Shown: one piece after another, positions 11,993 to 31,424 of the stretch
How the letters are laid out: each line of letters opens with the position of its first letter
Numbering within the stretch: the first letter of the stretch is position 1
From: Paludibacteraceae bacterium
GTDB taxonomy: Bacteria > Bacteroidota > Bacteroidia > Bacteroidales > Paludibacteraceae
Direction of reading: 5' to 3'
NCBI GenBank assembly: GCA_017446455.1
Contig: JAFSQV010000014.1
Span: 4,688 to 68,687, forward strand
Length of the DNA: 64,000 nucleotides
Position numbers and translations under genes: made by a program
Notes under the pieces: model-generated
What the model saw: only the letters and a program-made list of their open reading frames with translations
What the model was told of the DNA's origin: nothing
Database searches by the model: none

Positions 11993-12022
11993 ACAATACA
12001 AACCATTTAAAAATAAGAAGTG

Positions 12023-12244: not shown

Positions 12245-12265
12245 TCATTCAAAATCCTTACAAAA

Positions 12266-13030: not shown

Positions 13031-13032
13031 TC

Positions 13033-13770
13033 ATGACGCTGACGGTACTTGGAAGCGGGTCCACGGGCAACGGGTATGTCCTGCAGAACGAGCACGAAGC
13101 ACTCGTCCTTGAGTGCGGAATGCCACGGCAGGACTGCCTGGCAGCCTTGGGCTACAACGTAAAGAAAGTGCGCGGGTGCCTTGTGACGCACGAGCACGGC
13201 GACCATGCCGGTTTCATTGAAGACTACATGGAGCTGATGCCATGCTACACCAGCGCCGGTACTGCCAACGCTATCCGGTACCGCAAACAGCGTCGTCCGG
13301 AGGTGCTGGAGGTATTAAGAACCGTCCGGCTTGGTGGATTCAGCGTGCGGCCTATACCGGCAGAGCACGACGCAGCGGAGCCTTTCGCCTATATCATCGA
13401 CCACGAGGAGAGCGGGCGGCTGCTCTTCGCCACCGACACCTACTACATCCGCTACACCATTCCGCATTTGAATAACCTCATGATTGAGTGCAATTACTCG
13501 CTGCCTTTGTTGGAAGCCAACATCGCGTCCGGGCTGGTTCCGGAAGCGCTCAAAGCTCGCACCCTGGAAAGTCACATGAGCCTTGCGCACCTCAAGGAGA
13601 TGCTGACGGCTAATGACCTCACGGCTGTAAACAACATCGTCTTGATCCACATGTCCGGGCGCAACAGCCAACAGGACGCGTTTGTGCGCGAGATAACCGA
13701 GCACACGGGCAAACATACCGTGGCAGCGACAAAAGGCCTCACTATCGAAATAAACAAGACACCGTTCTGA
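13033..13770 (+). CDS. MBL-fold metallo-hydrolase (probable recombination-associated nuclease)
   Basis: MTLTVLGSGSTGNGY...LVTHEHGDHAG contains the HxHxDH motif. Confidence 0.75.
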   Translation: MTLTVLGSGSTGNGYVLQNEHEALVLECGMPRQDCLAALGYNVKKVRGCLVTHEHGDHAGFIEDYMELMPCYTSAGTANAIRYRKQRRPEVLEVLRTVRLGGFSVRPIPAEHDAAEPFAYIIDHEESGRLLFATDTYYIRYTIPHLNNLMIECNYSLPLLEANIASGLVPEALKARTLESHMSLAHLKEMLTANDLTAVNNIVLIHMSGRNSQQDAFVREITEHTGKHTVAATKGLTIEINKTPF

Positions 13771-14717
13771 TGGATAAAGAGCGTGCGACATATACCAAGA
13801 GCACTCCGGACAATCTGGTGCAGATAGTAGGTGGCATAAAATACGCAGGCATTGCCATGCTGGCAATAAGGCTCAATGCCTTTGCGGACGGCGACGAGGC
13901 GCGCGTTTCGATCCAGATGCTCTGCGAGATATTCTCCTGCAGCGTGAACACCATAAAGGAGTACGCGAGACGGTTGGCGATGCTGGATATCTGGCACTTG
14001 AAAACGTTCCACGGACGAGGTGATGTCGCAGTCTGGAAAAAAGGATCAAACTTTGATGCTTATACCACCATAAAACCATCAAACTTTGACGCTTTTGTAA
14101 CTATAGAAAACCATCAAACTTTGACGAAAAAACCATCAAACTTTGACGGTAACAATATAGATAACAATATAGCAGCCGAGCGCGCGGATAAGCGCGCGCA
14201 TGCGGCTGAGAAAAATGCTGCTGCCGATGGCGAGCTGGAGAAGGGCTCGCCCCGGCAGGGAAAGGAGGATAAAATGATACAGCAACAATTCGAGGAGTTC
14301 TGGACCCTATTCGACGCAAAAGACGAATACCAGGACCGCAAAGAGCGCTGCGAGCGCGTGTGGTACAACGCTACCTCCCAGGAGCGCCGCGAGGCTTACA
14401 TCAAGGCTTTGCGCGCCGGCAAGAAGCACCGCGACAACCCGCTCCATTACCTGCAGTACGACACGCCGGAGGAGGCAAAGGCGGAGTTCCCGATCTTCGT
14501 CAACGGTGACGGTTCGATTGCCATGGCATTGAACGAAGCGGAGAATGGCGGACGGCCGTTGGCATTTGTCCGGGGCGGGCTGCAGCTGCATATCAACGAT
14601 AACTTCGCATACATCTACGTCACAGACGCGATTGCGCAGAAGATTCGGGTGATCCGAACCATCCCAAGTCGCGCCATTGAGCATGTGCCTGCGGAGCTAA
14701 GAGAAAATCAACAATAA
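13770..14717 (+). CDS. replication initiator-like protein (wHTH N-terminus) containing intragenic iterons
   Basis: N-terminal HTH-like segment SIQMLCEIFSCSVNTIKEYARRL. The central peptide repeats (K)PSNFD are encoded by the iterons at 14043-14147. Confidence 0.5.
   Translation: MDKERATYTKSTPDNLVQIVGGIKYAGIAMLAIRLNAFADGDEARVSIQMLCEIFSCSVNTIKEYARRLAMLDIWHLKTFHGRGDVAVWKKGSNFDAYTTIKPSNFDAFVTIENHQTLTKKPSNFDGNNIDNNIAAERADKRAHAAEKNAAADGELEKGSPRQGKEDKMIQQQFEEFWTLFDAKDEYQDRKERCERVWYNATSQERREAYIKALRAGKKHRDNPLHYLQYDTPEEAKAEFPIFVNGDGSIAMALNEAENGGRPLAFVRGGLQLHINDNFAYIYVTDAIAQKIRVIRTIPSRAIEHVPAELRENQQ
14043..14172. repeat. iteron cluster plus AT-rich direct repeat (candidate phage origin)
   Basis: CCATCAAACTTTGAC at 14076, 14111 and 14133 and a degenerate GGATCAAACTTTGAT at 14043. 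These are followed by AACAATATAG twice (14151 and 14163). Confidence 0.6.
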
Positions 14718-14743
14718 CTAAAAACCCTTAAAAAACAAAAATT

Positions 14744-15157
14744 ATGATTCTTAATGAAGTAAAAGTGAACTACACCCGCCAGACGGGTGAGGACAACCCA
14801 GGTAAGGTACGCGAGGCGTACTTAGTTGAGAGCATTAGCTGCTCCGATGCAGAAAAGCAAGTAACCGATTATCTTGAGCCTTACATCTTTGGAGACTTTG
14901 AGGCTCCGCAAATCCGGAAGCGTCAGTTCTTTGATGTTTTCGATAATAGAAGCGGGGAATTCTTCTATGAATCCAAAGTAGAGATAATCATAGTTGACGG
15001 AGATAAAGAAACGCGCAAAGCCGTGACGGTGCTCGTACAAGAGAATACGCTGACAGGTGCTTTGGAAGAGCTCAAGCGCAAGATGGAGACCTACGACTGC
15101 GAGATCATTAGCATCAAGAAGTCTGCAATTCTGGAACTCCTGCGTCCTACGAAATGA
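14744..15157 (+). CDS. hypothetical protein (137 aa)
   Basis: Well-spaced ORF with an ATG start. No motif recognised with certainty. Confidence 0.55.
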   Translation: MILNEVKVNYTRQTGEDNPGKVREAYLVESISCSDAEKQVTDYLEPYIFGDFEAPQIRKRQFFDVFDNRSGEFFYESKVEIIIVDGDKETRKAVTVLVQENTLTGALEELKRKMETYDCEIISIKKSAILELLRPTK

Positions 15158-15261
15158 AAGCGCTCATGTTTAGTGTAATAACAATCCTCGTGATGGTTGG
15201 TGTTTCGGCGGTTCTACTCCGCCGGAGCATTGACCGCGAGGAGAAAAACGAAAAGCAATGA
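15154..15261 (+). CDS. small single-pass membrane protein (35 aa)
   Basis: MKALMFSVITILVMVGVSAVLLRRSIDREEKNEKQ, with ATGA overlaps at both ends. It is below the ORF-track length cutoff. Confidence 0.4.
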   Translation: MKALMFSVITILVMVGVSAVLLRRSIDREEKNEKQ

Positions 15262-15815
15262 AAATCTATCCATTACTATTATCGCAGACATTCCCTGCAA
15301 CGCACCCCAGGCACGGCGAGCCGACGTACTTTAAGGAGAAAATGCATAACGCACTCCTTTGGGAGAAAGGAATGAATGTCGGATATGCGCTCAATCCAAG
15401 CTACGCGGTTCCTCAAGATCAGCCGCAAATGAAACTGCATACCATCCGGGCAAACTTTAAACTATGGGTCTATCGGTTCGCAAAGATTTACACCGGCCAA
15501 GCGTGCCTCTCTCTACGGGTGTGGTCCGGCAAGCCTTACGCCAGTAAGCAGATCGAGATTGCCCGGCTGACAAAGGAAGACGGCATTGGTCTGCAGGCGC
15601 TGGAGTTCCTGGAGTTTGATCCGGTATTCAAGCCAGGCATCTGGATCGCCGGCAAAACGTATGAGCAAAGCCAGAAACTGATCCTTGCCAAGAACGACGG
15701 TCTTTCGTTTGACGACTGGAACGCGTGGTTTTTCGGCAAAAAGAAAAACGGCGAACCGCTATATGACCTTACAGAGAAGATGGCAATTATCCATTTCACA
15801 AGTTTTCGGTACTAA
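15258..15815 (+). CDS. ASCH/PUA-like domain protein (tentative)
   Basis: MKLHTIRANFKLW resembles the K-x-x-T-x-R core of ASCH domains. Otherwise uncharacterised. Confidence 0.35.
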   Translation: MKIYPLLLSQTFPATHPRHGEPTYFKEKMHNALLWEKGMNVGYALNPSYAVPQDQPQMKLHTIRANFKLWVYRFAKIYTGQACLSLRVWSGKPYASKQIEIARLTKEDGIGLQALEFLEFDPVFKPGIWIAGKTYEQSQKLILAKNDGLSFDDWNAWFFGKKKNGEPLYDLTEKMAIIHFTSFRY

Positions 15816-15951
15816 TGGCGACGAAAGATTGTAAAAACGGCTGCCCTCCTGGGACGGATATGCGGACTTGTATGCTTGCTTTCATGGAAGGCTGCCCGTA
15901 CCTCTCCAGCAGAGATGGAGATATTTTCGTAAAACAAAACACACAGCAATT

Positions 15952-16767
15952 ATGAGCAAAGCAATTTACATGCCAAAAGGCAAGGCAGGCGAGTACGCCA
16001 AATATGCCTGCAACTTCTACGTCGGATGCAGTAACGATTGTTCTTACTGCTACTGCAAGCGCGGACTGCTGGGACATGCCATGGGCGGCACCACTCCGAC
16101 ACTCAAAAAGTGCTTCAAGGACGAAGACGACGCGCTCAAAGTCTTCGAGCGCGAACTGGCGGCAAACTTACAAGAGTTGCAAAATCACGGATTGTTCTTT
16201 ACGTTCACCTCCGACCCGCTGCTGCCTGAGACGGAAGGTCTGACATTCGCGGCTATCGACACCTGCATCGACTACGATGTGCCTGTTAAGCTGCTGACCA
16301 AGCGGGCGGACTTCGATGTGAGTTCCTATTACGACATACACCTCGACAGTATAGCCTTTGGTTTCACGCTGACAGGCTGCGACGAGTTGGAACGCAACGC
16401 CAGCACAAACGCCGAACGCATAGCCAAAATGAAAGAACTCTACCACCGAGGCTTCAAGACCTTTGCGTCCATTGAGCCGGTGATTGACCTCGGCAAGAGT
16501 TACGACATGATAGCCAAGACGATCGGACACTGCGACCTCTACAAGATAGGCCTGCTGACGGGCAAACGTAACTACACGCCGGAAGATGTGTCGCAGTTCG
16601 TGTGTAAAGTGAACGACATGATTCACCGTCACAACTTCTTCAACAAAGAGGAAGTCAAAGTCTATTGGAAAGACAGCGTGCCGGGGTTCCTAAAGATTGA
16701 GCGCACAGACAAGTGTTTCGATCATTGGTTCTGCGTCGGCGCGGATTATGACATCTTTAATGAATGA
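15952..16767 (+). CDS. radical SAM protein (SplB-like CxxxCxxC)
   Basis: Start chosen at ATG 15952 (MSKAIYMPKGKAGEY). NFYVGCSNDCSYCYCKRG carries the CX3CX2C cluster motif. Confidence 0.6.
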   Translation: MSKAIYMPKGKAGEYAKYACNFYVGCSNDCSYCYCKRGLLGHAMGGTTPTLKKCFKDEDDALKVFERELAANLQELQNHGLFFTFTSDPLLPETEGLTFAAIDTCIDYDVPVKLLTKRADFDVSSYYDIHLDSIAFGFTLTGCDELERNASTNAERIAKMKELYHRGFKTFASIEPVIDLGKSYDMIAKTIGHCDLYKIGLLTGKRNYTPEDVSQFVCKVNDMIHRHNFFNKEEVKVYWKDSVPGFLKIERTDKCFDHWFCVGADYDIFNE

Positions 16768-16860
16768 TCCGTGTTTAAGAATTATCGACCGAATGTTATA
16801 AATCGGAGGGTAGTGGCGCATTATAATCGCAAATAACTTGCACGTGAAAAATAATAGTGT

Positions 16861-16868
16861 TACCTTTG
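16861..16868 (+). promoter_or_regulatory. internal promoter -7 box (TACCTTTG)
   Basis: GTGTTACCTTTGCACCAAC with ACTTGCACG upstream. Confidence 0.5.
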
Positions 16869-16918
16869 CACCAACAAAACGTAAACAACTGATTATCAAC
16901 CTTTAAAACAAAAAGACA

Positions 16919-17089
16919 ATGAAACGGTACAGAGCAGAGCTTTTCAGCAGGCCATTAGGATTATGGATCGAACACTGGCGATCATGTGAAACGCAAGAGG
17001 AAGCCCAAGAAGTATGCGACCTATATACAACTAACCAAGGATACATATACCCAAAGGCAAGAGTCGTAGAGATAGAGACGAAACAATAA
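16919..17089 (+). CDS. hypothetical small protein (56 aa)
   Basis: MKRYRAELFSRPLGLWIEHWRSCETQEEAQEVCDLYTTNQGYIYPKARVVEIETKQ. It is the first ORF after the promoter at 16861 and is below the track cutoff. Confidence 0.35.
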   Translation: MKRYRAELFSRPLGLWIEHWRSCETQEEAQEVCDLYTTNQGYIYPKARVVEIETKQ

Positions 17090-17137
17090 CTAACCAGGCA
17101 CGGGGCTTCGGCCCCTGCCACAAAACCCTTATAAAAC

Positions 17138-17536
17138 ATGGCATTCGAAGTATTTAACATCAACCCGAAAGGGCGCAAGACCGGGGACTGCGTGACGCGA
17201 GCTATCGCAAAGGCAGCCGGCATCACATGGCAAGAGGCGCTTCGCCTCCAGTATGAAACATCGCTCAAGACCGGATGGTCGCTAACCAGCACACAAACGA
17301 TTAACTTGGTGCTGAAGGGACTGGGCTTCGAGGAGCAGACGGTAAGGCCGCTGCCGGGCACAAAACGGCCGACGGTGGCGAAACTCGCTGAGCTCTACGA
17401 CCTCATGAGTGTTGAGAGTATCGTAGTCAAAGTATCCGGGCACCTCACATGCGCTGTCGCAGGAACCATATATGACCTTTGGGACTGCAGCGCGAAGCCG
17501 GCATACAAGTTTTGGATAAAATACGTGGAGGATTGA
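17138..17536 (+). CDS. hypothetical protein with a papain-like Cys/His/Asp arrangement
   Basis: GDCVTRAIA...SGHLTCAV...YDLWD. The order and spacing are compatible with a small cysteine peptidase fold, but this is unverified. Confidence 0.4.
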   Translation: MAFEVFNINPKGRKTGDCVTRAIAKAAGITWQEALRLQYETSLKTGWSLTSTQTINLVLKGLGFEEQTVRPLPGTKRPTVAKLAELYDLMSVESIVVKVSGHLTCAVAGTIYDLWDCSAKPAYKFWIKYVED

Positions 17537-17538
17537 AT

Positions 17539-18021
17539 ATGCAAGAAACCTCGAAAAAATATAAACTTATGAAGACAAAAACTATTCCGTTCGATGCTAA
17601 GATGGCAAAGGACATCCAAGATGGAAAGAATGATGGCAAAATCAAAACGAGAGATTCTAAAGATGTAGATGAGATAGTATTCTTCGGGACACCTTTAGAG
17701 TATAAAGTATATGCAGTAATTAACGGAAGACCACACTCATTTACAGAGAGAGGATTCGAGAGAAGTTGGGATAAAAGCGGCAAATGGCATGGCGACCTCG
17801 TTATCGAAGTGCCCGACAATGAGCCGCAGTTCAAACCGTTTGATAAGGTGCTGGTGCGAAATGAAGATACATCAGCTTGGACTTGTGCTATCTTCTCGCA
17901 TCATATAAATAACACAGTCAGTTTTCTGTATGCTGCAAACAGCTTCTTATGGAAGCAATGCATCCCATACGAAGGCAATGAGCACTTGGTAGGTACTACC
18001 GACAAACCAAAGGAGGACTGA
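17539..18021 (+). CDS. hypothetical protein (160 aa)
   Basis: ATG 17539 lies just after the upstream stop. AT-rich segment. Confidence 0.5.
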   Translation: MQETSKKYKLMKTKTIPFDAKMAKDIQDGKNDGKIKTRDSKDVDEIVFFGTPLEYKVYAVINGRPHSFTERGFERSWDKSGKWHGDLVIEVPDNEPQFKPFDKVLVRNEDTSAWTCAIFSHHINNTVSFLYAANSFLWKQCIPYEGNEHLVGTTDKPKED

Positions 18022-18023
18022 GT

Positions 18024-18362
18024 ATGACAATAAAAGAAAAAATAATCAACCGTCTTAACAAGGGTTTTAACGGTCATTACAATATACCGCATAATGCACA
18101 ATGGAAAACAAATCAAGCGCGAGGTATGTGGGTTCGTTCGCAAGGTGCTCATTCGTGGTATTTTAGCGATTTGAATTTATTTCCGCATGAGTTGGTCGGT
18201 AGTCAATACCCTGCGACAGAATGCCTTAAATGGAAAAGATGGTTGATTGATAAAAAAGAACGAGAGATATATCAATATATAGAAGGAGTAACAACTTATG
18301 ATAGCGAAACTTGTTTGCTCGAAAACATTGATTTAAAAAAATATAACAAACAGGAGGATTGA
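18024..18362 (+). CDS. hypothetical protein (112 aa)
   Basis: Tightly packed in the AT-rich ORFan block. Confidence 0.5.
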   Translation: MTIKEKIINRLNKGFNGHYNIPHNAQWKTNQARGMWVRSQGAHSWYFSDLNLFPHELVGSQYPATECLKWKRWLIDKKEREIYQYIEGVTTYDSETCLLENIDLKKYNKQED

Positions 18363-18364
18363 TT

Positions 18365-18565
18365 ATGACACAGTTTAATCAAGGATGGTGGAATTGCTTT
18401 ACATCGTTTGCAAACAATACGAGAATCGATTACAATTCTGTTTGTATGGAGGTTCTGCGTGGTGCAGGAATAAAAAGAAACGAGGCAGAGTATGCTATAA
18501 AAAAGCAATATGTATATGGAGAGGCGGTTGGTATTATCGAAGAATACTTAAAATTGGAGGAATGA
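18365..18565 (+). CDS. hypothetical protein (66 aa)
   Basis: ATG 18365 is preceded by AGGAGG. Confidence 0.45.
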   Translation: MTQFNQGWWNCFTSFANNTRIDYNSVCMEVLRGAGIKRNEAEYAIKKQYVYGEAVGIIEEYLKLEE

Positions 18566-18876
18566 GTATGATAGACGATCAAATCAAACCACTTGCGTAT
18601 AAAGTAGAACAACTCCGCAACCCGTGGATCAGCGTCGAGGAGAGGTTGCCTGAGAAAGCGAGAGGATTGTATGAGTTAGAAAAAGACGAGCAACACAAGA
18701 TGGTTCTATTTATGACTGCAAACGGCTGGCTATATATAGGATACTTGGACGCAGAGGAGATATGGCGTGCATTCACAGTCCCATTCAAGGGAGCATATCC
18801 AATAGATTCGCTCACATGGTCAAAGGTTACCCATTGGATGCCAATACCCGAATTGAAGGAAGGAGGTGAGCAATGA
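18562..18876 (+). CDS. DUF551-like phage protein
   Basis: WISVEERLPEK...VTHWMPIPE matches the DUF551 signature (W..v.e.lP ... thWmp.P). ATGA overlap with the upstream gene. Confidence 0.55.
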   Translation: MSMIDDQIKPLAYKVEQLRNPWISVEERLPEKARGLYELEKDEQHKMVLFMTANGWLYIGYLDAEEIWRAFTVPFKGAYPIDSLTWSKVTHWMPIPELKEGGEQ

Positions 18877-19040
18877 TGCTATCACAAACAATCATCCCTA
18901 TTTACTTACCAATGCCTTCTACTGATGGCATCCCGGCAGAAGAAGTAAACGTAGTCGTTCTTATAGGAGTAGGTATCATTTGCTTACTATTAGGCTTTTG
19001 TATAGGACTATTGCTGCACGATAAAATCTTCAAAATATGA
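18873..19040 (+). CDS. small membrane protein (55 aa)
   Basis: The segment ...VVVLIGVGIICLLLGFCIGLLLH... is a transmembrane segment. ATGA overlap. Below the track cutoff. Confidence 0.4.
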   Translation: MMLSQTIIPIYLPMPSTDGIPAEEVNVVVLIGVGIICLLLGFCIGLLLHDKIFKI

Positions 19041-19113
19041 TACTTCCCGTGCAAAAATTCATATTTTTATTAACTTTTTCGTAAAATTATTTGCAAGTTC
19101 GGAAATTTTGTAG

Positions 19114-19121
19114 TATCTTTG
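19114..19121 (+). promoter_or_regulatory. internal promoter -7 box (TATCTTTG)
   Basis: TGTAGTATCTTTGCAGCCG with ATTTGCAAG upstream. Confidence 0.5.
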
Positions 19122-19146
19122 CAGCCGAAAAAATATCTACGATAAT

Positions 19147-19359
19147 ATGGCTACACCTAATTCAAATGACAGGAAGGTAGAGCAGGAGCTAAACCAGGTG
19201 CTCAATTACGTCAAGAGCGCGAAGGCGCTCCTGAACAAGATTCTAAACAATCCGGATAACTACTCGAGCCGGTATCTGCAAACGCCAAGGCTCAAGAATG
19301 AAATCCACCAACTCGGTGTCAACCTTAGTGACGCTATTATCCACGCTTCAAATTTATAA
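19147..19359 (+). CDS. hypothetical 70-aa protein, paralog of 20846-21061
   Basis: MATPNSNDRKV... compared with MATPTTADRKV... They share the same length class and an all-helical composition. Confidence 0.5.
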   Translation: MATPNSNDRKVEQELNQVLNYVKSAKALLNKILNNPDNYSSRYLQTPRLKNEIHQLGVNLSDAIIHASNL

Positions 19360-19364
19360 TCGAT

Positions 19365-19577
19365 ATGGCAGTAAGTTTACGTATTACAGCAAGTAACCTC
19401 GAAGCACGAATACGAGGTGTTATGCAAGATGCTAAAGAAGCACAAATCCAGGCGCGAGGCCTTGGAGAAGGCTATGTAGGCGTTGAGGAAGTAAAAATGG
19501 CCACAAAGATATACCTTGAGGCAGCCCAAAAGGCGATCGATTATCTTCACAAGGCCGACAGACAATGGAAACGATAA
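19365..19577 (+). CDS. hypothetical 70-aa protein
   Basis: Compact ORF between the paralog and the methyltransferase. Confidence 0.45.
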   Translation: MAVSLRITASNLEARIRGVMQDAKEAQIQARGLGEGYVGVEEVKMATKIYLEAAQKAIDYLHKADRQWKR

Positions 19578-19619
19578 ATTCCGACTAACAATGCCAATCC
19601 CAACGACCATACTACCGAG

Positions 19620-20843
19620 ATGAATATCGTCAGAACAGAAACAGAGATTATAAAGGTTGCATTACTGCATCCGAATGAAGGGCAGATACCAGATGTACCT
19701 GCCAATCCTCGTTTTATCACTGAGGATGAGTACAAAGCGCTGGTGGATAGTTTGCGAGCAGATAACCTCACAGGAGTACTGCAAGTCAAGGTGTACCAGC
19801 ACAACAATCAATGGATTGTTCTTGATGGTAACATGCGCCTCAAGGCTCTGCAGGAATTGCAGATTGACGAGGTGCAATGTCTTATTGTACCGGAAGGAAC
19901 GGATGCACGCACACTTCGTAAGATTGTCCTCGATTCGAACTCCAACTTCGGCCAATGGGACTGGGACATGCTCTCGGATCAATGGGACATGGACGAGTTG
20001 GATGCTGCCGGCATCGACATTCCCGATCTGGGCGGAGCCAAACCGACGAACACCGAGGCGGAGGATGTGGAAGAGGACGATTTCGACGAGACAACGAACG
20101 AGATCAAGACGCGCTGCCAGGCTGGCGATATCTGGCAACTGGGCGAACATAAACTGCTCTGCGGGGACAGCACAAAGGAAGCGGACATCGCGCGCCTCAT
20201 GGGCAACGAAAAGGCTGACCTTTGGATAACCGATCCTCCGTACAACGTCAACTACGAGGGCGGCACAGACGAGAAGCTCAAGATCGCCAACGACAACATG
20301 AACTCCGGCGACTTCTTTGAGTTCCTCAAGGCTGCATTCACAACGGCCGTCAAAGTGCTCAAGGAAGGGTGCTCGTTCTATATGTGGTACGCAAGCCGCG
20401 AGCATGTGAACTTCGAAACGGCACTCAACGCAGCCGGGCTGACCGTCCGGGAGCAGTTGATCTGGAATAAGAGCAGCCTGGTCCTCGGCCGGTTCGATTA
20501 CCACTTCAAGCACGAGCCGTGTTTGTACGGATGGAAGGATGGCGCGAGCCACAACTGGTACAACGATCGCAGCCAGACGACCGTCATGGATTTCGAGAAA
20601 CCGCGCAAGAACGACCTGCACCCGACGATGAAGCCGGTGCCGCTCTTCGCGTATCAAATAGCCAACTCCAGCAAGAAAGGCGACATCGTGCTGGACACTT
20701 TCGGAGGTTCCGGAACGACCATCATCGCTTGTGAGAACCTCGGTCGCAAAGCCCGCAGCGTGGAACTGGACCCGCACTACTGCGACGTGATCCTCGCGCG
20801 CTGGGAGAAACTAACCGGAAAAGAAGCAATCAAAATTCAATAA
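19620..20843 (+). CDS. ParB-like nuclease domain fused to an N6A/N4C DNA methyltransferase
   Basis: N-terminal ParB-N pattern (LHPNEGQ..., VLDGNMRLKAL), an acidic linker, then FGxG/SAM motifs: ITDPPYN (motif IV) and LDTFGGSGTT (motif I). Confidence 0.8.
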   Translation: MNIVRTETEIIKVALLHPNEGQIPDVPANPRFITEDEYKALVDSLRADNLTGVLQVKVYQHNNQWIVLDGNMRLKALQELQIDEVQCLIVPEGTDARTLRKIVLDSNSNFGQWDWDMLSDQWDMDELDAAGIDIPDLGGAKPTNTEAEDVEEDDFDETTNEIKTRCQAGDIWQLGEHKLLCGDSTKEADIARLMGNEKADLWITDPPYNVNYEGGTDEKLKIANDNMNSGDFFEFLKAAFTTAVKVLKEGCSFYMWYASREHVNFETALNAAGLTVREQLIWNKSSLVLGRFDYHFKHEPCLYGWKDGASHNWYNDRSQTTVMDFEKPRKNDLHPTMKPVPLFAYQIANSSKKGDIVLDTFGGSGTTIIACENLGRKARSVELDPHYCDVILARWEKLTGKEAIKIQ

Positions 20844-20845
20844 TT

Positions 20846-21061
20846 ATGGCAACACCAACAACCGCAGACAGAAAGGTCGCAAGCGGGTATCACCAAGTAA
20901 TCCGCTCGATATCTAAGACACAAGGAGAAGTCAACGAGTTCAAGTATAACGTTAGCAATTCGCAGGCGTATGCTGACCTCCAGAGCGACGTGCGCAAGGC
21001 TGCTGATTTAATAAAAGAGGCAGGTCTACTACTCGCTAAACATCAAAACGAATTTATGTAA
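20846..21061 (+). CDS. hypothetical 71-aa protein, paralog of 19147-19359
   Basis: Shares the N-terminus MATPxxxDRKV and lies immediately upstream of the MetK-like gene. Confidence 0.5.
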   Translation: MATPTTADRKVASGYHQVIRSISKTQGEVNEFKYNVSNSQAYADLQSDVRKAADLIKEAGLLLAKHQNEFM

Positions 21062-21063
21062 CT

Positions 21064-21861
21064 ATGTTTGAAAAAGTGAATCCGAGCCATCCGGATAAGG
21101 TGGCGGACCGTATAGCAGGTGCGATAGTGGACCTCTGCTATAAAAAGAACGACTGCCCGAAGGTGGCTGTTGAGGTGCTCCTGGGCCACGGCCTTTGTAC
21201 CGTGATTGCCGAGACGGGCGAAGTGATAACCGAGCAGGAGGTGTGCGACATCGTTCATCGCATCGCCGGCGCACAGGAAGTGAAGTTCATCTGCGTGAAG
21301 CAAGACATCCACTTGGCGCAGAACCAGCGCAAGAACCCTCGCTGTGGTGACAACGGCATCTTTAAAGGCTCGCCGGTCAGCGCAGAGCAAGCAGAGCTCT
21401 CCAACCTCGCGCACCAACTCTACCAGAAATACCCTACTGACGGCAAGTTCATCGTGAACGGCGGCCGTCTCACCATCTGCCAATCGCAAGCCAAGAACCG
21501 CGACATTCGCAAGTTCTTTGAGGAGAAAGGTCACAAGGAGTTGACCATCAACCCTCTGGGCGAGTGGGAAGGAGGCCCGAATGTGGACAGCGGAGCGACA
21601 AACCGCAAGCTCGGAAGCGATATGGGCGATGGTGTGACCGGTGGTGGTCTGCACGGCAAGGACCTCTCGAAAGCGGATGTGTCCGTTAATATCTTCTGTC
21701 ATATCATGGCGCAAAAGACCAACCGGGACTACAGAGCCGTGTGTGCCATCGGCGACGAATACGTGAACGGCATACCTTTCGCGCAGATCGTGGGTCTGGC
21801 AAAGAACTACATCGACCAGGTTGGCGGATTTGAGAAGTTCGCTGAGTGGGGATTGATCTAA
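21064..21861 (+). CDS. compact S-adenosylmethionine synthetase (MetK)-like protein, 265 aa
   Basis: Collinear MetK motifs are present. SHPDKVADRIAGAIVD corresponds to GHPDKIADQISDAVLD, CGDNGIFKG to GAGDQGLMFGYA, INPLGEWEGGPNVDSGATNRK to [22 protein letters not shown], and GGGLHGKDLSKADVS to GGGAFSGKDPSKVDRS. The protein is ~120 aa shorter than bacterial MetK. Confidence 0.7.
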   Translation: MFEKVNPSHPDKVADRIAGAIVDLCYKKNDCPKVAVEVLLGHGLCTVIAETGEVITEQEVCDIVHRIAGAQEVKFICVKQDIHLAQNQRKNPRCGDNGIFKGSPVSAEQAELSNLAHQLYQKYPTDGKFIVNGGRLTICQSQAKNRDIRKFFEEKGHKELTINPLGEWEGGPNVDSGATNRKLGSDMGDGVTGGGLHGKDLSKADVSVNIFCHIMAQKTNRDYRAVCAIGDEYVNGIPFAQIVGLAKNYIDQVGGFEKFAEWGLI

Positions 21862-21868
21862 AACATCA

Positions 21869-21957
21869 GTGGTTAGAAAGGGCGTCTGGAAGGCGCGTCG
21901 AGGGTTAGTCACAACCTTAAGGTCGCCGTCCGTGGTTCGATTCCACGGCTAACCACT
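21869..21957 (+). ncRNA. tRNA-like element 1 (non-canonical; class II/Sec-like features)
   Basis: 8-9 bp acceptor-like helix GTGGTTAG/CTAACCAC and a perfect T-arm CCGTGG-TTCGATT-CCACGG. The D-like hairpin is GCGTC-TGGAA-GGCGC. There is a 6-bp helix AGGGTT/AACCTT closing AGTCAC (TCA centred) and a 12-nt extra arm. It does not fold as a standard 7-nt anticodon loop. Confidence 0.45.
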
Positions 21958-21961
21958 TACA

Positions 21962-22035
21962 TCGCAGGATGGAGCAACTGGATAGACTCACGAGTATTGT
22001 ACCCGGCATGTGTAGGTTCGAATCCTACTCCGCAA
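21962..22035 (+). ncRNA. tRNA-like element 2 (degenerate; possible pseudo-tRNA)
   Basis: Good D-arm (GAGC-AACTGGATAG-ACTC) and T-arm (GTAGG-TTCGAAT-CCTAC). The loop-like ATTGTAC would give anticodon TGT, but the flanking stem does not pair and the acceptor helix needs a bulge. Confidence 0.35.
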
Positions 22036-22052
22036 CTAACATCTAAACAACT

Positions 22053-22556
22053 ATGGCACAGGAGCTTTGGCAGATAGCTAAACCATTCGGCAGACCGAGG
22101 AAATTCAAAACGCCCAAGGAACTATGGGACGCTTTCATCGCGTATGTCGAGTGGGCTGAAAACAACCCGATAACGGTTGGAAACGAGCGTCGCCAAAAGC
22201 AATCAGCCAAAAGAGGAGAGGAAAAAGCGCAGAGAAAGGAAACGGCTCCGCGCCCCTACTCTCTTGTGGCATTCCGTATACATGCCGGCATCAAACGCGA
22301 CTGGGCAACATTCGCGGCGACTTACTCCAAGAGAAGCCATGACTTTTGTGGAGTCATACAAGCCATCGAAGAGAGTGTCCGCCAGCAGATGGTCGAGCAG
22401 GCTATGGTTGGCAACTACAAAGAGAACCTCGTAGCACGCATCAACGGCATCTCCGACAGCATCAAGCAGGAGGTGAAAGCCGATGTTCAAGCCCGGACAT
22501 CGTTGAGCGTGGGCGAGGCACAAGCGTTCCTTGAGGAATTGGAAAAGACGATCTAA
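22053..22556 (+). CDS. terS: terminase small subunit (putative)
   Basis: PFGRPRKFKTPKELWDAFIAYVEWAENNP is a typical TerS N-terminal HTH. It lies directly upstream of and overlaps TerL. Confidence 0.6.
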   Translation: MAQELWQIAKPFGRPRKFKTPKELWDAFIAYVEWAENNPITVGNERRQKQSAKRGEEKAQRKETAPRPYSLVAFRIHAGIKRDWATFAATYSKRSHDFCGVIQAIEESVRQQMVEQAMVGNYKENLVARINGISDSIKQEVKADVQARTSLSVGEAQAFLEELEKTI

Positions 22557-24013
22557 TGACGAAGCAAGAGGTAATAGCAGCCAAGTGTGTCGCGGACACC
22601 CTGTGGGCGACGCGATACTTCTTCTACGCAGAGAACGGCCGCAAGTTCAATGTGGGCGAACACCACAAGCGTATTGCAGAGAAGCTCGACCGCGTGTTTC
22701 GTGGCGAATGCACAAGGCTTATCATCAACTGCCCGCCGCGTTACTCCAAGACGGAGATGCTAAAGGCGTTTGTGAAGAAGGGTCTGGCAATCAACCCAGC
22801 ATCGAAATACATCATGCTGTCGTATTCGGCTAACCTTGCGCTGGACAACTCCGAACGTATCAAGGATGCCGTGGCGAGCGATTGGTACCGGGATTTGTTT
22901 CCTTGGGTGCAGATTAAAAAAGACAGCCACAGCAAGCAGAAATGGTACACGACGCAGGGCGGTGGCATCTACGCGACATCCTCGGACGGCCAGGTGACCG
23001 GTTTCGGAGCCGGTTTGGTCAAGGAAGAGGGCGCAGAGGACTTTGACATTGAGAGCAACGCAGGTGCCTGGGGTGGTGCCATCATCATCGATGACCCGCT
23101 CAAACCGCTGGACGCAAGTAGTCCTGTCAAACGGCAAAAGGTCAACGACCAGTTCGAGAATACCATCCGGAGCCGTGTGAACGACCGGAGCACGCCGATC
23201 ATCATCATCATGCAGCGTCTTCACAAGCAGGACCTCTGCGGCTACCTGCTGGACCTGGAGCCGGATGAGTGGGAGGTGCTTTCGCTACCGGCGCTAAGCG
23301 TGGACGAGAATGGCAACGAGGTGGCTCTTTATCCGTTCAAGCACACGGTGGAGGAGCTGCACAAGATACGCGCTGCAAACCGGTTCACGTTCGAGACGCA
23401 GTACCAGCAGAACCCGAAAGCCATCAACGAGAAGCTGTGGCTGTTTGCTTTTGACAGAGACAAGCACACCGGGCATGTGGAGTATGATCCGAGCCAGCCG
23501 CTGGTGATGAGCTGGGACTTCAACCGCAACCCGATGACATGCACGCTGTTTCAGCATATCGGGCACCAGGTACGCGGCATCGAGTGCTTCCGCATCGAGA
23601 ACGCCACCACGCGTATGGTATGCCAGGAGATACACAAGAAATACCCGAATGCGTTCTGGTTGGTCACCGGCGATGTGGCAGGTAAGAACTCCACGACGCT
23701 CTCGCTGCTCAATAACTACGACGTGGTCAAGGCCTACTTCGATTTGAGCCGGAGCCAAATGCAGTACTCAGGGACCAACCCAAGGCTCGCCGACAGCCGT
23801 TACTTCATGAACTCGCTGTTTGAGCAATACGACATCGTCTTTGACAAAGAAAAATGCAAGCCGGCCATCTTCGACTTTGAGAACGTGATGTCCGACGAAG
23901 AGAATAAACCCGTGAAGACCTCCCGCGATAACGTAGCGCAGCAGGCGGACTTCCTTGATAACGTGCGCTACTATTTCCATCGGTTCTACAAGGAACTGAT
24001 ACCAAATTACTAA
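22556..24013 (+). CDS. terL: terminase large subunit
   Basis: Walker A-like INCPPRYSKTE and Walker B AIIIDDPLKP. The C-terminal nuclease half shows a D-rich pattern. 485 aa. Confidence 0.8.
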   Translation: MTKQEVIAAKCVADTLWATRYFFYAENGRKFNVGEHHKRIAEKLDRVFRGECTRLIINCPPRYSKTEMLKAFVKKGLAINPASKYIMLSYSANLALDNSERIKDAVASDWYRDLFPWVQIKKDSHSKQKWYTTQGGGIYATSSDGQVTGFGAGLVKEEGAEDFDIESNAGAWGGAIIIDDPLKPLDASSPVKRQKVNDQFENTIRSRVNDRSTPIIIIMQRLHKQDLCGYLLDLEPDEWEVLSLPALSVDENGNEVALYPFKHTVEELHKIRAANRFTFETQYQQNPKAINEKLWLFAFDRDKHTGHVEYDPSQPLVMSWDFNRNPMTCTLFQHIGHQVRGIECFRIENATTRMVCQEIHKKYPNAFWLVTGDVAGKNSTTLSLLNNYDVVKAYFDLSRSQMQYSGTNPRLADSRYFMNSLFEQYDIVFDKEKCKPAIFDFENVMSDEENKPVKTSRDNVAQQADFLDNVRYYFHRFYKELIPNY

Positions 24014-24014
24014 C

Positions 24015-24308
24015 ATGCTAACACGCATCATCATATTGAGCCTTATCATCACAGCCGTCCACGTGACCACGTGGGATGGCATGATTTTCCATCGTCCTGC
24101 AGAGTGGATCGGTGAGTGGCTGGACCGCTGGCACCTGGGCGTGATGCGCAAACCTTTATGGGAGTGCAACATCTGCATGGGCGGCATCTGGACGCTCTTT
24201 CTCGACCCGGTCCTCTTCGGCTGGTCGTGGTGGGTGCTCGTGGATATGCTGTGCGTGATCGGGCTGAACACTTTAATCGCGGCTCTTATCAGTCGCATAA
24301 ACGAATAA
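24015..24308 (+). CDS. hypothetical membrane protein (97 aa)
   Basis: Three hydrophobic segments: IIILSLIITAV, GGIWTLFLDPVLFGWSWWVLV and VIGLNTLIAAL. Confidence 0.5.
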   Translation: MLTRIIILSLIITAVHVTTWDGMIFHRPAEWIGEWLDRWHLGVMRKPLWECNICMGGIWTLFLDPVLFGWSWWVLVDMLCVIGLNTLIAALISRINE

Positions 24309-24312
24309 AAAT

Positions 24313-24549
24313 ATGACAGATTCACAAAGAAACAACGCAACGAGGATACTGCGTTCCTATGGCATTGACCGTTTAACTCTTAACAATCATGCCGGTGCAA
24401 CCTATAGCATCGAGAATGACGGTATAGAGGTGAGAAAGATATCCAAGACCGACTACGAGAAGATAAGAGGCGATTTCGGCCGTTATGGTCTTAAAGTAAT
24501 GGTAAGCAGTGCTGACGGATATGGTCGTCTAATTTTGAAAATTCAATGA
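24313..24549 (+). CDS. hypothetical protein (78 aa)
   Basis: Packed ORF whose stop overlaps the next start. Confidence 0.5.
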   Translation: MTDSQRNNATRILRSYGIDRLTLNNHAGATYSIENDGIEVRKISKTDYEKIRGDFGRYGLKVMVSSADGYGRLILKIQ

Positions 24550-24767
24550 CACATCAAGCAGAGGCATTGGGATTTCGTTTTTCGCGCTACGGCTGTCCTT
24601 GTAACGGCAAGCCGGCCATTTATACCATTGACCACGATGGAGCGCAGCAGACCTTGACCATTTGGCCAATGCGGGACGCGTGGCAGTTGACATCCAAAGG
24701 CCTGCGGCTCGCCGGAGGCAACAAAGAGAACATGACAAATAAAATCAAAGAGATATGGGCCTTATAA
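24546..24767 (+). CDS. hypothetical protein (73 aa)
   Basis: ATGA overlap with the upstream ORF. Confidence 0.5.
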   Translation: MTHQAEALGFRFSRYGCPCNGKPAIYTIDHDGAQQTLTIWPMRDAWQLTSKGLRLAGGNKENMTNKIKEIWAL

Positions 24768-25348
24768 AAGAACTGGCAGAGGTGTGGCGCATCCAATGGG
24801 ATAAAAAGCGCGAACAGAAAAACAAGTACCGCATCGAGTACGCGTTTACGTGCGGCGGCACCAAGTACTACCGCTTTGCCGATATCACAAACCTGCCGTA
24901 TGAGCGCGGGCTGATGGCACTGGTGGCTTACAACGAGGTGGAGATGCGCTGCTCGCGTGAGTTCCTCATCAAGTACCAGGGAGCCGTGGACAAACTGCTC
25001 CACGACCAGAAGATTGACATCTTCAAAATCCAGCAGCTGAACGAGATACTGAAACAGCGTCTGCAACTGCCGACGGATGTGGACTTGCTCTACAAGCTCG
25101 CCAGCATCTGTTTCTTTGACAAGAGTGAGAACCCGGCTGTTTACGAACCAGCCTATGCCGAAAAGAAAATAGCCAAATGGCGGAAAGATAAAGGGGTGCA
25201 CGATTTTTTTATGCAGACGCCTTTGTTGGAATTAATGCCATTCTTAGGGAGTGTCGATACCGATTTAGACACCTTTTCGGCTCTCCAAGCGGAGATAGAC
25301 GCGATCCACTCGCAAGCTCTCCGATTAGCGTCCTCGGCGAAAAAATAG
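24755..25348 (+). CDS. tail assembly chaperone (gpG-like), zero-frame product
   Basis: It lies immediately upstream of the tape measure gene and ends in GCG AAA AAA TAG with an open -1 frame downstream. Confidence 0.55.
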   Translation: MGLIKELAEVWRIQWDKKREQKNKYRIEYAFTCGGTKYYRFADITNLPYERGLMALVAYNEVEMRCSREFLIKYQGAVDKLLHDQKIDIFKIQQLNEILKQRLQLPTDVDLLYKLASICFFDKSENPAVYEPAYAEKKIAKWRKDKGVHDFFMQTPLLELMPFLGSVDTDLDTFSALQAEIDAIHSQALRLASSAKK

Positions 25349-25530
25349 ACGAGTACGAACATTGGAAAGACCTCGTCAGCGAGGGCAACACGGCCAACCT
25401 CGAGAACATGACGTTCTTGGAGTTCATGGCAAAACTGGACCGGCTCATCGATAAGTATGAGAAGGAGGCGAAAGCCGCAAAGGAACGTGCAGAAAGCATA
25501 AAGAACCACAAGCACTATGCCAGAAAATGA
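25337..25530 (+). other. -1 programmed frameshift site and gpGT-like extension
   Basis: An A6 run (25340-25345) sits directly before TAG. The -1 frame continues KIDEYEHWKDLVSEGNTANLENMTFLEFMAKLDRLIDKYEKEAKAAKERAESIKNHKHYARK for 62 codons, to TGA 25528-25530, overlapping the TMP start. Confidence 0.55.
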
Positions 25531-28500
25531 CATCATCATCAAAATAACCGGCGAGGCGGATTTGGATGCGGCGCAAAAGCAGTTGCAGGAACTGACGAAG
25601 CGGTCGGAGGACTACGAGAAGCAGATCGAGAAGCTCAAAGAAAAAGAGAAGCAGGTATCTGCCAGTCTTCGGCAATCTATCAAGAACCGCAAAGAACTCT
25701 CCGATGTATTAATCGAAACACATCGGCAATACAGCAATCAACGCAAGGCTCTCAAAGATAACATCACAGCCAACAAACAAAGCATCAAGGCGCTGACGGA
25801 TCAAGTCAAGGCATACAAGACCTTACATGGTCAGTCAGGCCGTATGGTCCAGCAGCTCCGCGCCATGCGCGAGGAACTCCAGAGGATGGAGGATGCCGGC
25901 GAGTTTGGATCGCAGGCATTTGTGGACCTCGCCATCGCGGCAGGAAAGCTCGAGGACCAGATCGGCGACACCCAGCAGCGCATCCGCATCCTGGCCAGCG
26001 ACACGAAGAACATGGATGCTTTGATGGGTCTTGGTGATGGACTGGCAGGAACATTCTATATAGCCACATCCGGTGCAGAGTTATTCGGCGAGGATATGGA
26101 GGGTTTGCAGCAGGCATTCTACAAGGTGCAGGCTGCTATGTCTATTCTGTCCGGAACACAGCAAATTTACAACTCTCTCCAAAAGGATAGTGCATTTGCT
26201 GTCGTCTTCGGGAACGGGCTCGAAAAAACAAAACAGAAACTCCTGCAGCGATCTACGGCACTCGAGCGGCTGTATAATATCCAGAAAAAGACAGGAGCAG
26301 CCACCAATAGCGCGCAGGCATTTACAACAGGATTGTGGACTAAGGCGCAATGGAAACTCAATGCAGCAATTGCAGCAAACCCTATAGGCGCAACCATCAT
26401 GGCACTTCTTGCCTTGGGAGCAGCCGTCATGGGGATAATATCCGCATATAACAAGTTCGTTAGCACATCCGGAAAAGCGCAAATGAAACTTGAGGAATTG
26501 CGTGCACAGAATGGCGCGAACGAGGCGAAACGTGCGCACGATCACGAAAGGAGGATACAATCCATTGATAACAAGGAAACGAAAGCGCTCGCTGAAGCAA
26601 AGAAACGCTATGCAAGCGAGGTGGAGATGGCAAAAATTAAAGCTAAGAATGCAAAGGAGCGCGCCAAAGAAACAGAGGCGTACACGAAGAAGGAGATTGC
26701 TCTTAACAATCAGGAAGTGGAGCAGTTGAAGATAATCATGGAAGAGTCTCAAAAGGAAGCGGATTCGGCATGGAGATGGTTTGGCCGCAAGAAACGTAAA
26801 CAAAAGGAAGCAGCAGAGGCGCAGCAAAACTACTACGAAGCACTCAGGAAAACGGAGGACCTGGAGCAGCAGAACATCGACACTCAACAAGCCGCAAGCG
26901 ATGCGGAACAGGAGTTAGTAGAGGCGCGTAAAAGCATGACTCTCGAAGCGGAGCAGACCAATATCAACATCATGCGCGATGGAGCTACCAAAGAAATCGC
27001 CTTGATCAACGCGAACTATAGAGAGAAACTTAAGTACATCAAAGGCAACACAAAAGAAGAGATCGCTCTTCGGAAGGCGCTGGAGGACCAGCAGGCTAAA
27101 GAGATAAGCGAAGTTCGCAAGAAATACTCGCTCCAGGCGCTACAAGTTGAAGTCCAGGAGAAGAAAAACCTGCTGACGGCCATGGCACAAAGCCGAGGTA
27201 CAGAAGCGGACTACGAAAAGGAGCTCGAGTTGACGAAGGAAGTTGCTAAAAAAGAGGCGAAGGCTCGCATCGACTCGCTCGACAAAGTGAATATGTCGAC
27301 CAAGGAGTATGCGGCACAAAAGGCTGCAATCGAATTGGAGTTGGCAGAGACCATCAAGAGAATTGATAATGACGAGGCAACCCGGAAGGCAGAGAACGCC
27401 CGCCGGATTACTGAGATAGAGTTGCGGGAAGCAGAGATACGAAAGAATGCTCTCACGGGAGCGGAAGGAGTGGACGAGCAGAAGGCAATATTGGAAGACT
27501 ACTACGCTACCCGTAAGAAGCAACTCGAAGAGAACGCACGCCTGGAGAAAGAGTCGGTTGAGCGCTCCAAAGACACCGAGGAAGTCAAGACGGCCAAGAT
27601 CAAGGCGATAGATGCGCAGTTGAATGCCGACCTTGTGGAACTCAAGAAAGAGGGATCGCAGGCGATGCTTGATGTGGATAAGCAATACTTGACAGAGTTG
27701 GAGATTGCAGCAGACAAAGCAGCAGATAAGGTCAGCAAGGCGGGCACTACAGGCGACAAGCTGAAGGCTCTAAAAGAGCAGTTCGAGGCAGAAAAAGCAC
27801 TCAACGCAGAGCAGATAAAACAACTTGACGAGGCATGGAACAGCGGTGCTCTGACCGATCATAGCGAGTACCTCAAGGAGCGTTATGAACTTACAAAGGC
27901 CACCGTGGACGCAGAGTTGGAGTACCAGCAGAACGCCATCCAAGCCATCGCGGACGGGTTCGATCAGACGCTGAGTTACATCCAGCAGATCAGCGACATC
28001 GCTTTTGAGGCTCTGAGCAGCAACGTCCAGGCTGAGTTGGATGCATTTGAAAAGATGTACACCACCGACTGGGAAGAGGCCCAGAAAAACGCTGATAAGA
28101 AATACCTGACGGAGAAGGCTTACGAGAAGAAGAAAGCGGCTCTCCAGGAGAAGCAGGCGAAATACGCCAAGGCGCAAGCCATCATCAATGCCGGTATCAA
28201 TACGGCGCTCGCCATCACGAACGCGCTCTCGACATGGCCTGTCTCGCTGGGAATTGCCATGGCGGCCATCGTTGGCGCAATGGGTGCTATCCAGATAGGT
28301 GTCATTGCCAACAAGCCTCTCGCTCAGTACGCGAAAGGCCGTAAGGGCGGCAAAGGCGAATACGCGCTCGTCGGAGAAAAAGGACCGGAGGTTATGTACG
28401 TGCCTGACGGTGCGAGCATTGTCCCTAACAGCCTCATCGCTACTCCGGAAGCATGGCCAAAGTTCGGTGTTCCGGAGCTCCCGCACACCGACAGAGAAAT

Positions 28501-31419: not shown

Positions 31420-31424
31420 GAAAA

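Follow-up and report, generated by a model that had tools for sequence, protein, structure and literature searches.

A compact MetK-like protein paired with a ParB-like DNA methyltransferase in a Paludibacteraceae prophage: a probable phage-borne source of S-adenosylmethionine

The stretch of DNA considered here, 64,000 nucleotides from a Paludibacteraceae bacterium and referred to as the window, contains a prophage of ~44 kb (extent 5278..49224). In this prophage, the gene of a ParB-like/N6_N4 DNA methyltransferase, a small open reading frame (ORF) and the gene of a short homolog of the S-adenosylmethionine (SAM) synthetase MetK follow one another with gaps of 2 nt (Table 1). The homolog, called mini-MetK, consists of 265 amino acids (aa), and the terminase genes directly downstream place the mini-MetK/methyltransferase pair at the head of the packaging/late genes, an order also found in the relatives L082–L085. 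A first-pass annotation of the sequence had described a MetK-like ORF with the signature blocks in order, ~120 aa shorter than bacterial MetK and one small gene downstream of a ParB-N6A/N4C methyltransferase. This description is borne out: all four blocks are present, the protein is 119 aa shorter than the 384-aa E. coli MetK, and a 71-aa ORF lies between the two genes. Mini-MetK is apparently a complete but minimal methionine adenosyltransferase (MAT), not a broken MetK. On the comparisons below, it is probably an active SAM synthetase free of feedback, co-expressed with the methylase to fuel the methylation of phage DNA.

The profile and structure searches agree on the MetK/MAT assignment, and a different fold, which the first-pass annotation had named as a possible outcome, was not seen. 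Pfam S-AdoMet_synt_N (PF00438) matches the window protein with 43.4 bits against a gathering threshold of 33.1 (E 5.3e-11). In phmmer searches, 45 MAT sequences of the PDB match at E<=3e-5, in each case over two segments, one N-terminal and one around the P-loop. From an alignment of 48 family sequences, AlphaFold2 gives a confident monomer model (predicted local distance difference test (pLDDT) 88.1, predicted template modeling (TM) score 0.89) with three βαββαβ repeats. The top 50 listed Foldseek matches in the PDB are all MATs, with E values of ~1e-13 and query-normalised TM scores of 0.66–0.76, and the best is the Ureaplasma MAT 6RKC. A structure search of BFVD gave no meaningful viral match, and the PHROG assignment is phrog_1569, labelled "unknown function". 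The signature blocks are SHPDKVADRI (aa 8–17), CGDNGIFKG (94–102), INPLGEWEGGPNVDSGATNRK (162–182), and GGGLHGKDLSKAD (193–205). Low pLDDT is found at residues 81–90 and 171–200, which correspond to the gate loop and the triphosphate loop. In known MATs, ligand binding and dimer formation are both needed to order these loops, and the active sites are built across the dimer interface.

The ligand and catalytic residues of E. coli MetK were mapped one-to-one by anchoring on shared motifs, which gave 19 positions (window equivalents in parentheses): H15 (H9), D17 (D11), K18 (K12), E43 (E37), E56 (E50), Q99 (Q80), D119 (D96), D164 (D126), K166 (K128), N226, F231 (W168), D239 (D175), R245 (R181), K246 (K182), D250 (D186), K266 (K199), D267 (D200), K270 (K203), and D272 (D205). 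All 19 ATP/Met/Mg/K ligand positions are kept, and the sole change is the replacement of F231 by Trp. The retention of binding residues, which the first-pass annotation had proposed to check, is also a property of the family: the 19 positions are identical in 16/16 riboswitch-linked, at least 120/121 methyltransferase-linked, and 22/22 other relatives (~160 sequences). Trp stands at the position of the adenine-stacking F231 in every family member.

Canonical MetK (E. coli; PDB 1FUG, 7LL3; TIGR01034) and mini-MetK share the three-repeat fold, the order of the signature blocks and the 19 ligand positions, at ~25–29% identity. Relative to E. coli MetK, the N-terminus is 6 residues shorter, 13 residues after E56 (an insert in the canonical enzyme) are missing, and the gate loop lacks 4. 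The middle repeat is reduced by ~40 aa, of which 15 precede D164 and 25 come from its latter half. A single residue is gone directly ahead of D239 and 3 from the P-loop, and the largest loss, ~52 residues, affects the C-terminal third: a β-hairpin, a segment of ~20 residues and the tail. Apart from the hairpin, a C-terminal region of ~20–40 aa is missing. The conserved C-terminal GGFEKFAEW of the window protein aligns with the canonical YGHFGR..FPWE motif. The central domain had been called largely trimmed in the first-pass annotation. The central repeat does lose residues, but so do the other domains, and the C-terminus loses most. All three MAT domains are pared down and none is removed.

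The methyltransferase partner has a ParB-like N-domain (aa 1 to ~165, 19620–20114) and an N6_N4 methyltransferase domain (aa ~190–400). The latter is matched by Pfam PF01555 at 1.4e-27 and by phrog_498 at 1.6e-127, and carries the TDPPY motif (TDPPYNV). The N-domain alone gives no Pfam ParB_N match, and a PDB phmmer search returns only spurious HPPK/DHPS matches. It does match several ParB PHROG families, down to 2e-17, and in a profile–profile comparison (hhalign) it pairs with the N-domains of ParB_N-positive homologs at 98.1% probability, with GNMR (box-II-like) aligned to GHGR. These matches support its reading as a divergent ParB-like domain. The architecture appears to be that of the phage fusions of a ParB-CTPase fold with an N6_N4 methyltransferase (phrog_498; PMC12704722), which are reported to be enriched in phages and prophages, with role unknown and anti-defence suspected. 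In the passages of that survey consulted here, the fusions are not connected with any SAM synthetase, and the ParB-like domain in the window differs in being divergent and below the Pfam ParB_N threshold. No other methyltransferase was found in the window. The first-pass annotation had called this one an orphan; the ORFs flanking it, several of them small and without annotation, have no nuclease family matches in the family scans.

Mini-MetK is closely tied to genes whose products consume SAM. The locus samples are the best 80 matches per collection (80 IMG/VR loci, out of more than 595 matches there, and 80 genome loci; 160 in total), and SAM-consumer neighbours were detected from tblastn seeds. 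In 54 of the 65 IMG/VR loci with at least 1.8 kb downstream, the start of a methyltransferase ORF of 406–446 aa abuts or overlaps the mini-MetK stop. In five more, the methyltransferase lies directly upstream, as in the window, so that the two genes are adjacent in 59/65 (~91%). Pfam confirms ParB_N and N6_N4_Mtase in the viral partners. Among viral loci with 3 kb on both sides, an N6_N4 methyltransferase occurs in 33/35 and a C5 methyltransferase as well in 23/35; genome loci with the same margins have at least one SAM consumer (N6_N4 or C5 methyltransferase or radical-SAM protein) in 34/45. The co-occurrence suggested for survey by the first-pass annotation is thus a conserved tight gene pairing and not a coincidence. 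Its proposal of a phage SAM source next to a SAM-consuming methylase is strengthened by this pairing and is the most economical reading; the enzyme activity itself is predicted.

The partners vary at some loci. One variant module (L005:3695–7471), located directly before the terminase, comprises a 3'-phosphoadenosine 5'-phosphosulfate (PAPS)-reductase-like protein (IbrA-type), a ParB-like protein of 178 aa, a small methyltransferase-like ORF with a DPPC motif, mini-MetK, and a stand-alone ParB-like protein of 217 aa. A ParB-less N6_N4 methyltransferase is found near mini-MetK in L093, and C5 methyltransferases in L104 and L138. Radical-SAM/SPASM proteins lie on both sides of mini-MetK in L131 (2145–5703), a radical-SAM or SPASM protein is nearby in L141, and in L098 (6959–8302) a riboswitch-controlled mini-MetK is followed by a B12-binding radical-SAM gene. 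In L131 and L098, mini-MetK may be a dedicated SAM supply for radical-SAM chemistry. The trait shared by the neighbours, across three unrelated enzyme folds, is the use of SAM.

Such loci bear on the possibility that mini-MetK is a general booster of the SAM pool or a host manipulator, not dedicated to DNA methylation. It could then provide SAM for other phage users, or force host SAM riboswitches off and shut down methionine/SAM genes. The radical-SAM/SPASM neighbours that replace methyltransferases, the copies that stand alone (L032) and a radical-SAM-like ORF 4.3 kb upstream of mini-MetK in the window speak for it. This ORF, in the early/middle region of the prophage, has CxxxCxxC in the form GCSNDCSYC and similarity of a weak PA0069/SplB type, and may be a second SAM consumer. 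A general booster is nonetheless unlikely when ~91% of viral copies lie directly against a DNA methyltransferase, often with overlapping stop and start. The first-pass annotation had also considered manipulation of host SAM pools with regard to SAM-dependent defences. Raised SAM would not obviously disarm bacteriophage exclusion (BREX) or type I/III restriction–modification, because these systems need SAM to restrict.

A second, chromosomal setting provides independent evidence on the chemistry. Methylase-free genome loci lie in ordinary chromosomal surroundings, including pyrK-pyrD-pyrF-pyrE, an FAD oxidoreductase, an M29 aminopeptidase, and, recognised by sequence appearance, glycerol kinase (glpK) and a phosphate transporter. 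These chromosomal mini-MetK genes have a leader of ~190–250 nt upstream. Rfam detects the SAM-I riboswitch (RF00162) on the coding strand at 50–67 bits against a gathering threshold of 44.4, in 13/13 loci tested and also in L157, L161, and L169. In 15 loci, 57–90 nt separate the end of the aptamer from the first codon of mini-MetK; in L161, the distance is ~295 nt. An nhmmer scan of the 160 loci gives 16 riboswitch-linked genome loci (15 Rfam-confirmed plus L102), none of them viral, and 122 methyltransferase-linked loci, with no overlap between the two sets. The riboswitch-linked loci are L095, L098, L099, L102, L106, L115, L117, L121, L128, L130, L132, L133, L143, L156, L157, L161, and L169; sixteen come from the scan of species-representative genomes, and L169 is an addition from a metagenome contig. 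Their carriers are metagenome-assembled genomes of Bacilli, Erysipelotrichaceae, and Clostridia. Identity is 68% between copies of the two classes and 71% within either. A neighbour-joining tree (no support values) mixes the members of both classes, and none of the 19 catalytic positions differs between them.

Canonical MetK and mini-MetK are both found behind SAM-I riboswitches in Bacillota, and riboswitch control, taken with the MetK homology, argues strongly and independently for SAM as the product of the family. This setting suggests that some Bacillota use the compact enzyme as their housekeeping SAM synthetase, whereas the phage copy appears to be free of the feedback control that the chromosomal copies have. 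Annotation pipelines do not call these chromosomal genes metK, and the genomes may look short of a SAM synthetase or seem to carry an extra one. In L169, two SAM_HAT genes (PF01887, SAM hydroxide adenosyltransferase) lie ~8 kb downstream of mini-MetK. The 301-aa "long form" of the family (P0092, 71 members; L169:9969–10906) does not hold up. Its extra 5' stretch runs over the SAM riboswitch, so the start codon was miscalled, and the true product has ~265 aa.

Two proposals give the protein another activity or none. In the first, mini-MetK uses another nucleotide or amino acid to make a SAM analogue, from which the partner transferase performs a non-methyl modification of DNA. The Trp at F231 in every member, the shortened gate and triphosphate loops, and the L005 locus with its PAPS-reductase/ParB (IbrA/IbrB-like) genes would suit such a change. 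No change is seen in the equivalents of the methionine-binding residues (E56, Q99, D239, K270) or in the triphosphate ligands, the partner genes encode N6_N4 (DPPY) and C5 methyltransferases of the ordinary kind, and the chromosomal riboswitch is a standard SAM-I aptamer, all of which make altered chemistry very unlikely. In the second, a non-catalytic mimic binds host MetK (heterodimer poisoning) or its partner and inhibits or redirects SAM synthesis; the first-pass annotation had raised it as a decoy or inhibitor. The protein is shorter than MetK and scores below the curated family thresholds, and a truncated subunit could in principle poison an enzyme whose active site spans the dimer interface. 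A mere binder would not need the 19 ligand and catalytic residues that are invariant in ~160 sequences, nor are the near-identical chromosomal copies regulated by SAM riboswitches in the manner of a decoy, but in that of biosynthetic genes. Moreover, an identity of ~25–29% to canonical MetKs and hosts of several phyla make a conserved heterodimer interface unlikely. The evidence points to catalysis, and a mimic is highly improbable.

The family is very common. A word-indexed search finds at least 8000 clusters at 90% identity, of which the best 120 are all 260–301 aa long and carry PF00438 only; some are named "S-adenosylmethionine synthetase" by the Joint Genome Institute (JGI). A profile search that covered all 1.84 billion representatives at 50% identity gives only 301 clusters with E<=1e-30, and many of these are fragments. 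The family is abundant yet homogeneous in sequence, which fits strong purifying selection. Among phage GenBank records, there are 25 matches at 55–61% identity, from Streptococcus Javan prophages, Oscillospiraceae and Ruminococcus gut phages, Gardnerella vB_Gva_AB1, and Terrisporobacter. In species-representative genomes, mini-MetK occurs mostly in Bacillota and in few Bacteroidota, and the nearest relative is from Prevotella sp. (68%). The window gene is an ordinary member of this family, an uncharacterised compact variant of a universal enzyme.

Phage SAM synthetases as such are not new, and their annotation is routine; E. coli MetK has matches in 139 phage records, most of them to streptococcal forms of 345 aa. 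The MetK proteins of streptococcal prophages (345–353 aa; Φ1207.3 orf29, phi29862_0030) occupy the same slot as mini-MetK, after an SNF2 helicase and before a ParB-adenine methyltransferase, a C5 methyltransferase and the terminase. Φ1207.3 orf29 was suggested to supply the methyl donor for the neighbouring phage methylase (Iannelli et al. 2014, PMC4260502), so the pairing of MetK with a ParB-methylase was already noted in 2014 for the longer form. The streptococcal proteins differ in being canonical MetKs of almost full length, 46–48% identical to E. coli MetK, in having all three Pfam domains, and in usually being followed by an HNH endonuclease. Their identity to the window protein is only 25%, and the mini family forms a lineage of its own that has diverged further. 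Where streptococcal prophages are syntenic, either the 345-aa canonical-type MetK (phi29862) or mini-MetK (Javan105) sits between the helicase and the two methyltransferases, and this swap in place argues for equivalent function. The literature searched, with most subscription journals outside it, gave no earlier report of the near-obligate phage pairing of the compact family with ParB-methylases or other SAM users, or of compact chromosomal copies controlled by SAM riboswitches.

A short MetK-related ORF near a ParB-type adenine methyltransferase is also known from the group B Streptococcus (GBS) prophages 12/111phiA and phiGBSVK-A (246 aa; PMC8223999), where it is called truncated but functional, with the catalytic domain spared. 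The phiGBSVK-A protein (L086:3998–4738) is of the 345-aa streptococcal type with one internal deletion, D164–K246, which removes the P-loop and half of the active site. Contrary to PMC8223999, SAM synthesis by the GBS protein appears unlikely, because this segment, with ATP/triphosphate ligands and D239, R245, and K246, is absent. The window protein keeps the P-loop and the active-site residues of this segment. Its identification with the "135-aa truncated" MetK of 12/111phiA was accordingly rejected, the phiGBSVK-A counterpart being an internally deleted canonical type without the catalytic core. The GBS protein has been tied to aggregation and biofilm phenotypes (PMC8223999), which could be cited for a lysogenic-conversion variant of the general booster, with changed physiology of the lysogen (polyamines, autoinducer-2 (AI-2), biofilm). 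These phenotypes do not transfer from a protein of another lineage without the catalytic core, and the position of mini-MetK at the head of packaging genes argues for expression in the lytic cycle and not in the lysogen.

The other features of the prophage are given in Table 1. The att-like repeat delimits it, with the last copy at the 3' end of a tRNA gene. At the integrase end, the repeat TTnTGTGACCCCGCTGGG forms three tandem copies (5278–5396) with a 49-nt period, an unusual arrangement that may stem from successive integrations. The flanking chromosome encodes a tmRNA with the tag GNNYEYALAA, and an XseA protein encoded there shares a cluster at ≥90% identity with a protein of a Paludibacteraceae metagenome-assembled genome, which places the host in the Bacteroidales. 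The ORFs flanking the methylase at 19147–19359 and 20846–21061 are weak paralogs, with an N-terminal MATPxxxDRKV in both and 34% identity over 38 aa. Pfam, NCBIfam, and PHROG scans give no family match for the 71-aa ORF. It was rejected as a conserved third component, as an unrelated 93-aa ORF takes its slot in 95%-identical relatives; the slot is variable and outside the conserved pair. Further upstream, a recombination module (12266–13770 and 9915–11909) encodes RecT, a metallo-β-lactamase (MBL)-fold protein, and an SMC/AAA_23 ATPase. The MBL-fold protein has weak similarity to the anti-Pycsar protein Apyc1 (E 2.5e-4, well below cut-off). Three tandem 33-nt repeats (AAAACCATCAAACTTTGA...) lie within an ORF that itself has no family match; they look iteron-like and could mark the phage replication origin. 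A megablast of 11 kb around mini-MetK against phage records gave one 83-nt match only, and no close sequenced phage was found.

Table 1. Features of the prophage and their coordinates in the window
Feature	Position	Strand	Size	Remarks
att-like repeat TTnTGTGACCCCGCTGGG	5278/5327/5376 + 49204 (49204-49224)			last copy = 3' end of tRNA-Arg(CCG)
Tyrosine integrase	5528-6838	-		beside three TTnTGTGACCCCGCTGGG copies
ORF with tandem repeats	13770-14717			three 33-nt repeats at 14039-14139
Radical-SAM-like ORF	15868-16767	+		Pfam Radical_SAM 1.2e-5, below gathering; NCBIfam PA0069-type rSAM 1.2e-7
Repeated element, six copies	3799-3860, 7994-8055, 8677-8738, 16813-16874, 19066-19127, 36578-36639	+ (19066-19127, 36578-36639)	62 nt	motifs TTTG, ~20 nt, then TAnnTTTG (TAnnTTTGCA)
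Two ORFs opening the block	19147-19359, 19365-19577	+	70 aa each	
ParB-like/N6_N4 DNA methyltransferase	19620-20843	+	407 aa	
Small ORF	20846-21061	+	71 aa	
Mini-MetK (compact MetK/MAT homolog)	21064-21861	+	265 aa	
TerS, gp3-like small terminase subunit	22053-22556	+		Pfam GP3_package 8e-13
Large terminase subunit	22556-24013	+		Pfam Terminase_6C, weak

The expression context of the pair is outlined by the 62-nt element, of which a repeat search of the window found six copies. Its motifs resemble the promoter consensus of Bacteroidota/Bacteroides. The copies seem to mark where transcription units of the prophage start, and one precedes the host tRNA-Met. The copy at 19066–19127 stands just ahead of the block that opens at 19147 and is its candidate promoter, from the methyltransferase through mini-MetK to the terminase; the next copy on the + strand is that at 36578. 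No terminator-like site was seen on the + strand between mini-MetK and TerS (21861 to 22053), and the pair would thus head the packaging/late transcription unit. A σ70-type promoter scan gave background level only, and the σ70 consensus is not appropriate for a Bacteroidota host. An Rfam scan of the window found no SAM-I riboswitch (RF00162), and the prophage copy is not an S-box member.

The missing riboswitch could also be read as a sign that mini-MetK maintains SAM when the pool is lowered by the host, by a defence system or by a rival phage (of the SAM lyase type), or when host metK is no longer transcribed during infection. Phages do fight over SAM in the opposite direction: the T3 SAM lyase (SAMase) degrades SAM, inhibits MetK, and disables host restriction–modification and BREX (bioRxiv 10.1101/2023.02.27.530186). 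Like mini-MetK, it is encoded by a phage and bears on the SAM supply of a host in which DNA modification and restriction depend on SAM; its fold is unrelated and its direction opposite, as mini-MetK would make SAM for the phage methylase. No SAM-depleting defence was identified in the window or in related loci, and this counter-depletion role, which overlaps the supply of SAM to the methylase and is inseparable from it by sequence data, is quite unlikely as the main function.

In the supply of SAM to the methylase, mini-MetK, probably a homodimer like other MATs, would convert ATP and L-methionine to SAM, PPi, and Pi. Its gene, packed and presumably co-transcribed with that of the ParB-like/N6_N4 methyltransferase ahead of the packaging/late genes, would be expressed upon induction, and SAM would be made free of host feedback control. 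The phage methylase would be the main user of this SAM, on newly replicated DNA before packaging, and the methylated progeny genomes would be protected from restriction in the next host. A SAM concentration of ~0.2 mM in a 1-fL cell equals ~1e5 molecules. Methylation of a 4-bp site on both strands in 100 copies of a 44-kb genome takes ~3e4 methyl groups, and more when a C5 methyltransferase is also present. The demand would therefore be comparable to the whole pool, as an order-of-magnitude estimate.

Several points count against this supply role. The Pfam central domain PF02772 gives no match to the window protein, the C-terminal PF02773 reaches 16.6 bits against a gathering threshold of 25, and the NCBIfam equivalog TIGR01034 scores 57.3 bits against a cut-off of 309.4. 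The triphosphate loop (171–200) is modelled at pLDDT of only 60–68. The register of D126-G-K128 is ambiguous: hhalign (96% probability) pairs it with E. coli D175-G-K177 and not with D164-A-K166. The latter register is preferred here, because in the model the motif starts the first hairpin strand after the repeat-2 helix and because it is invariant. The locus samples are biased toward relatives ~60% identical to the query, solo copies such as L032 exist, and the linkage is an association, not proof that the methylase is SAM-limited. Within the literature searched, no description or enzymology of the ~260-aa compact family was found.

A bolder version of the supply of SAM joins two claims. Mini-MetK and the ParB-methylase would form a physical self-fuelling unit in which SAM is handed over directly, and the ~260-aa protein would be the sole riboswitch-controlled SAM synthetase of some gut Bacillota. 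The ParB-like domain would load or slide on phage DNA, and the co-translated mini-MAT would pass SAM to the methylase independently of the host SAM pool. We regard the two claims together as unlikely. If true, they would make this the smallest natural MAT, and its gene would have passed more than once between phages and the chromosomes of their hosts.

If active, mini-MetK would be ~30% smaller than every MAT characterised so far, and a natural one. It would show what the smallest catalytic core of a universal enzyme is, and offer a compact scaffold for making SAM and SAM analogues. A common annotation is thereby turned into a testable model, the mirror image of SAM destruction by T3, in which many temperate phages of gut and oral bacteria would carry their own feedback-free SAM supply wired to DNA methylases.

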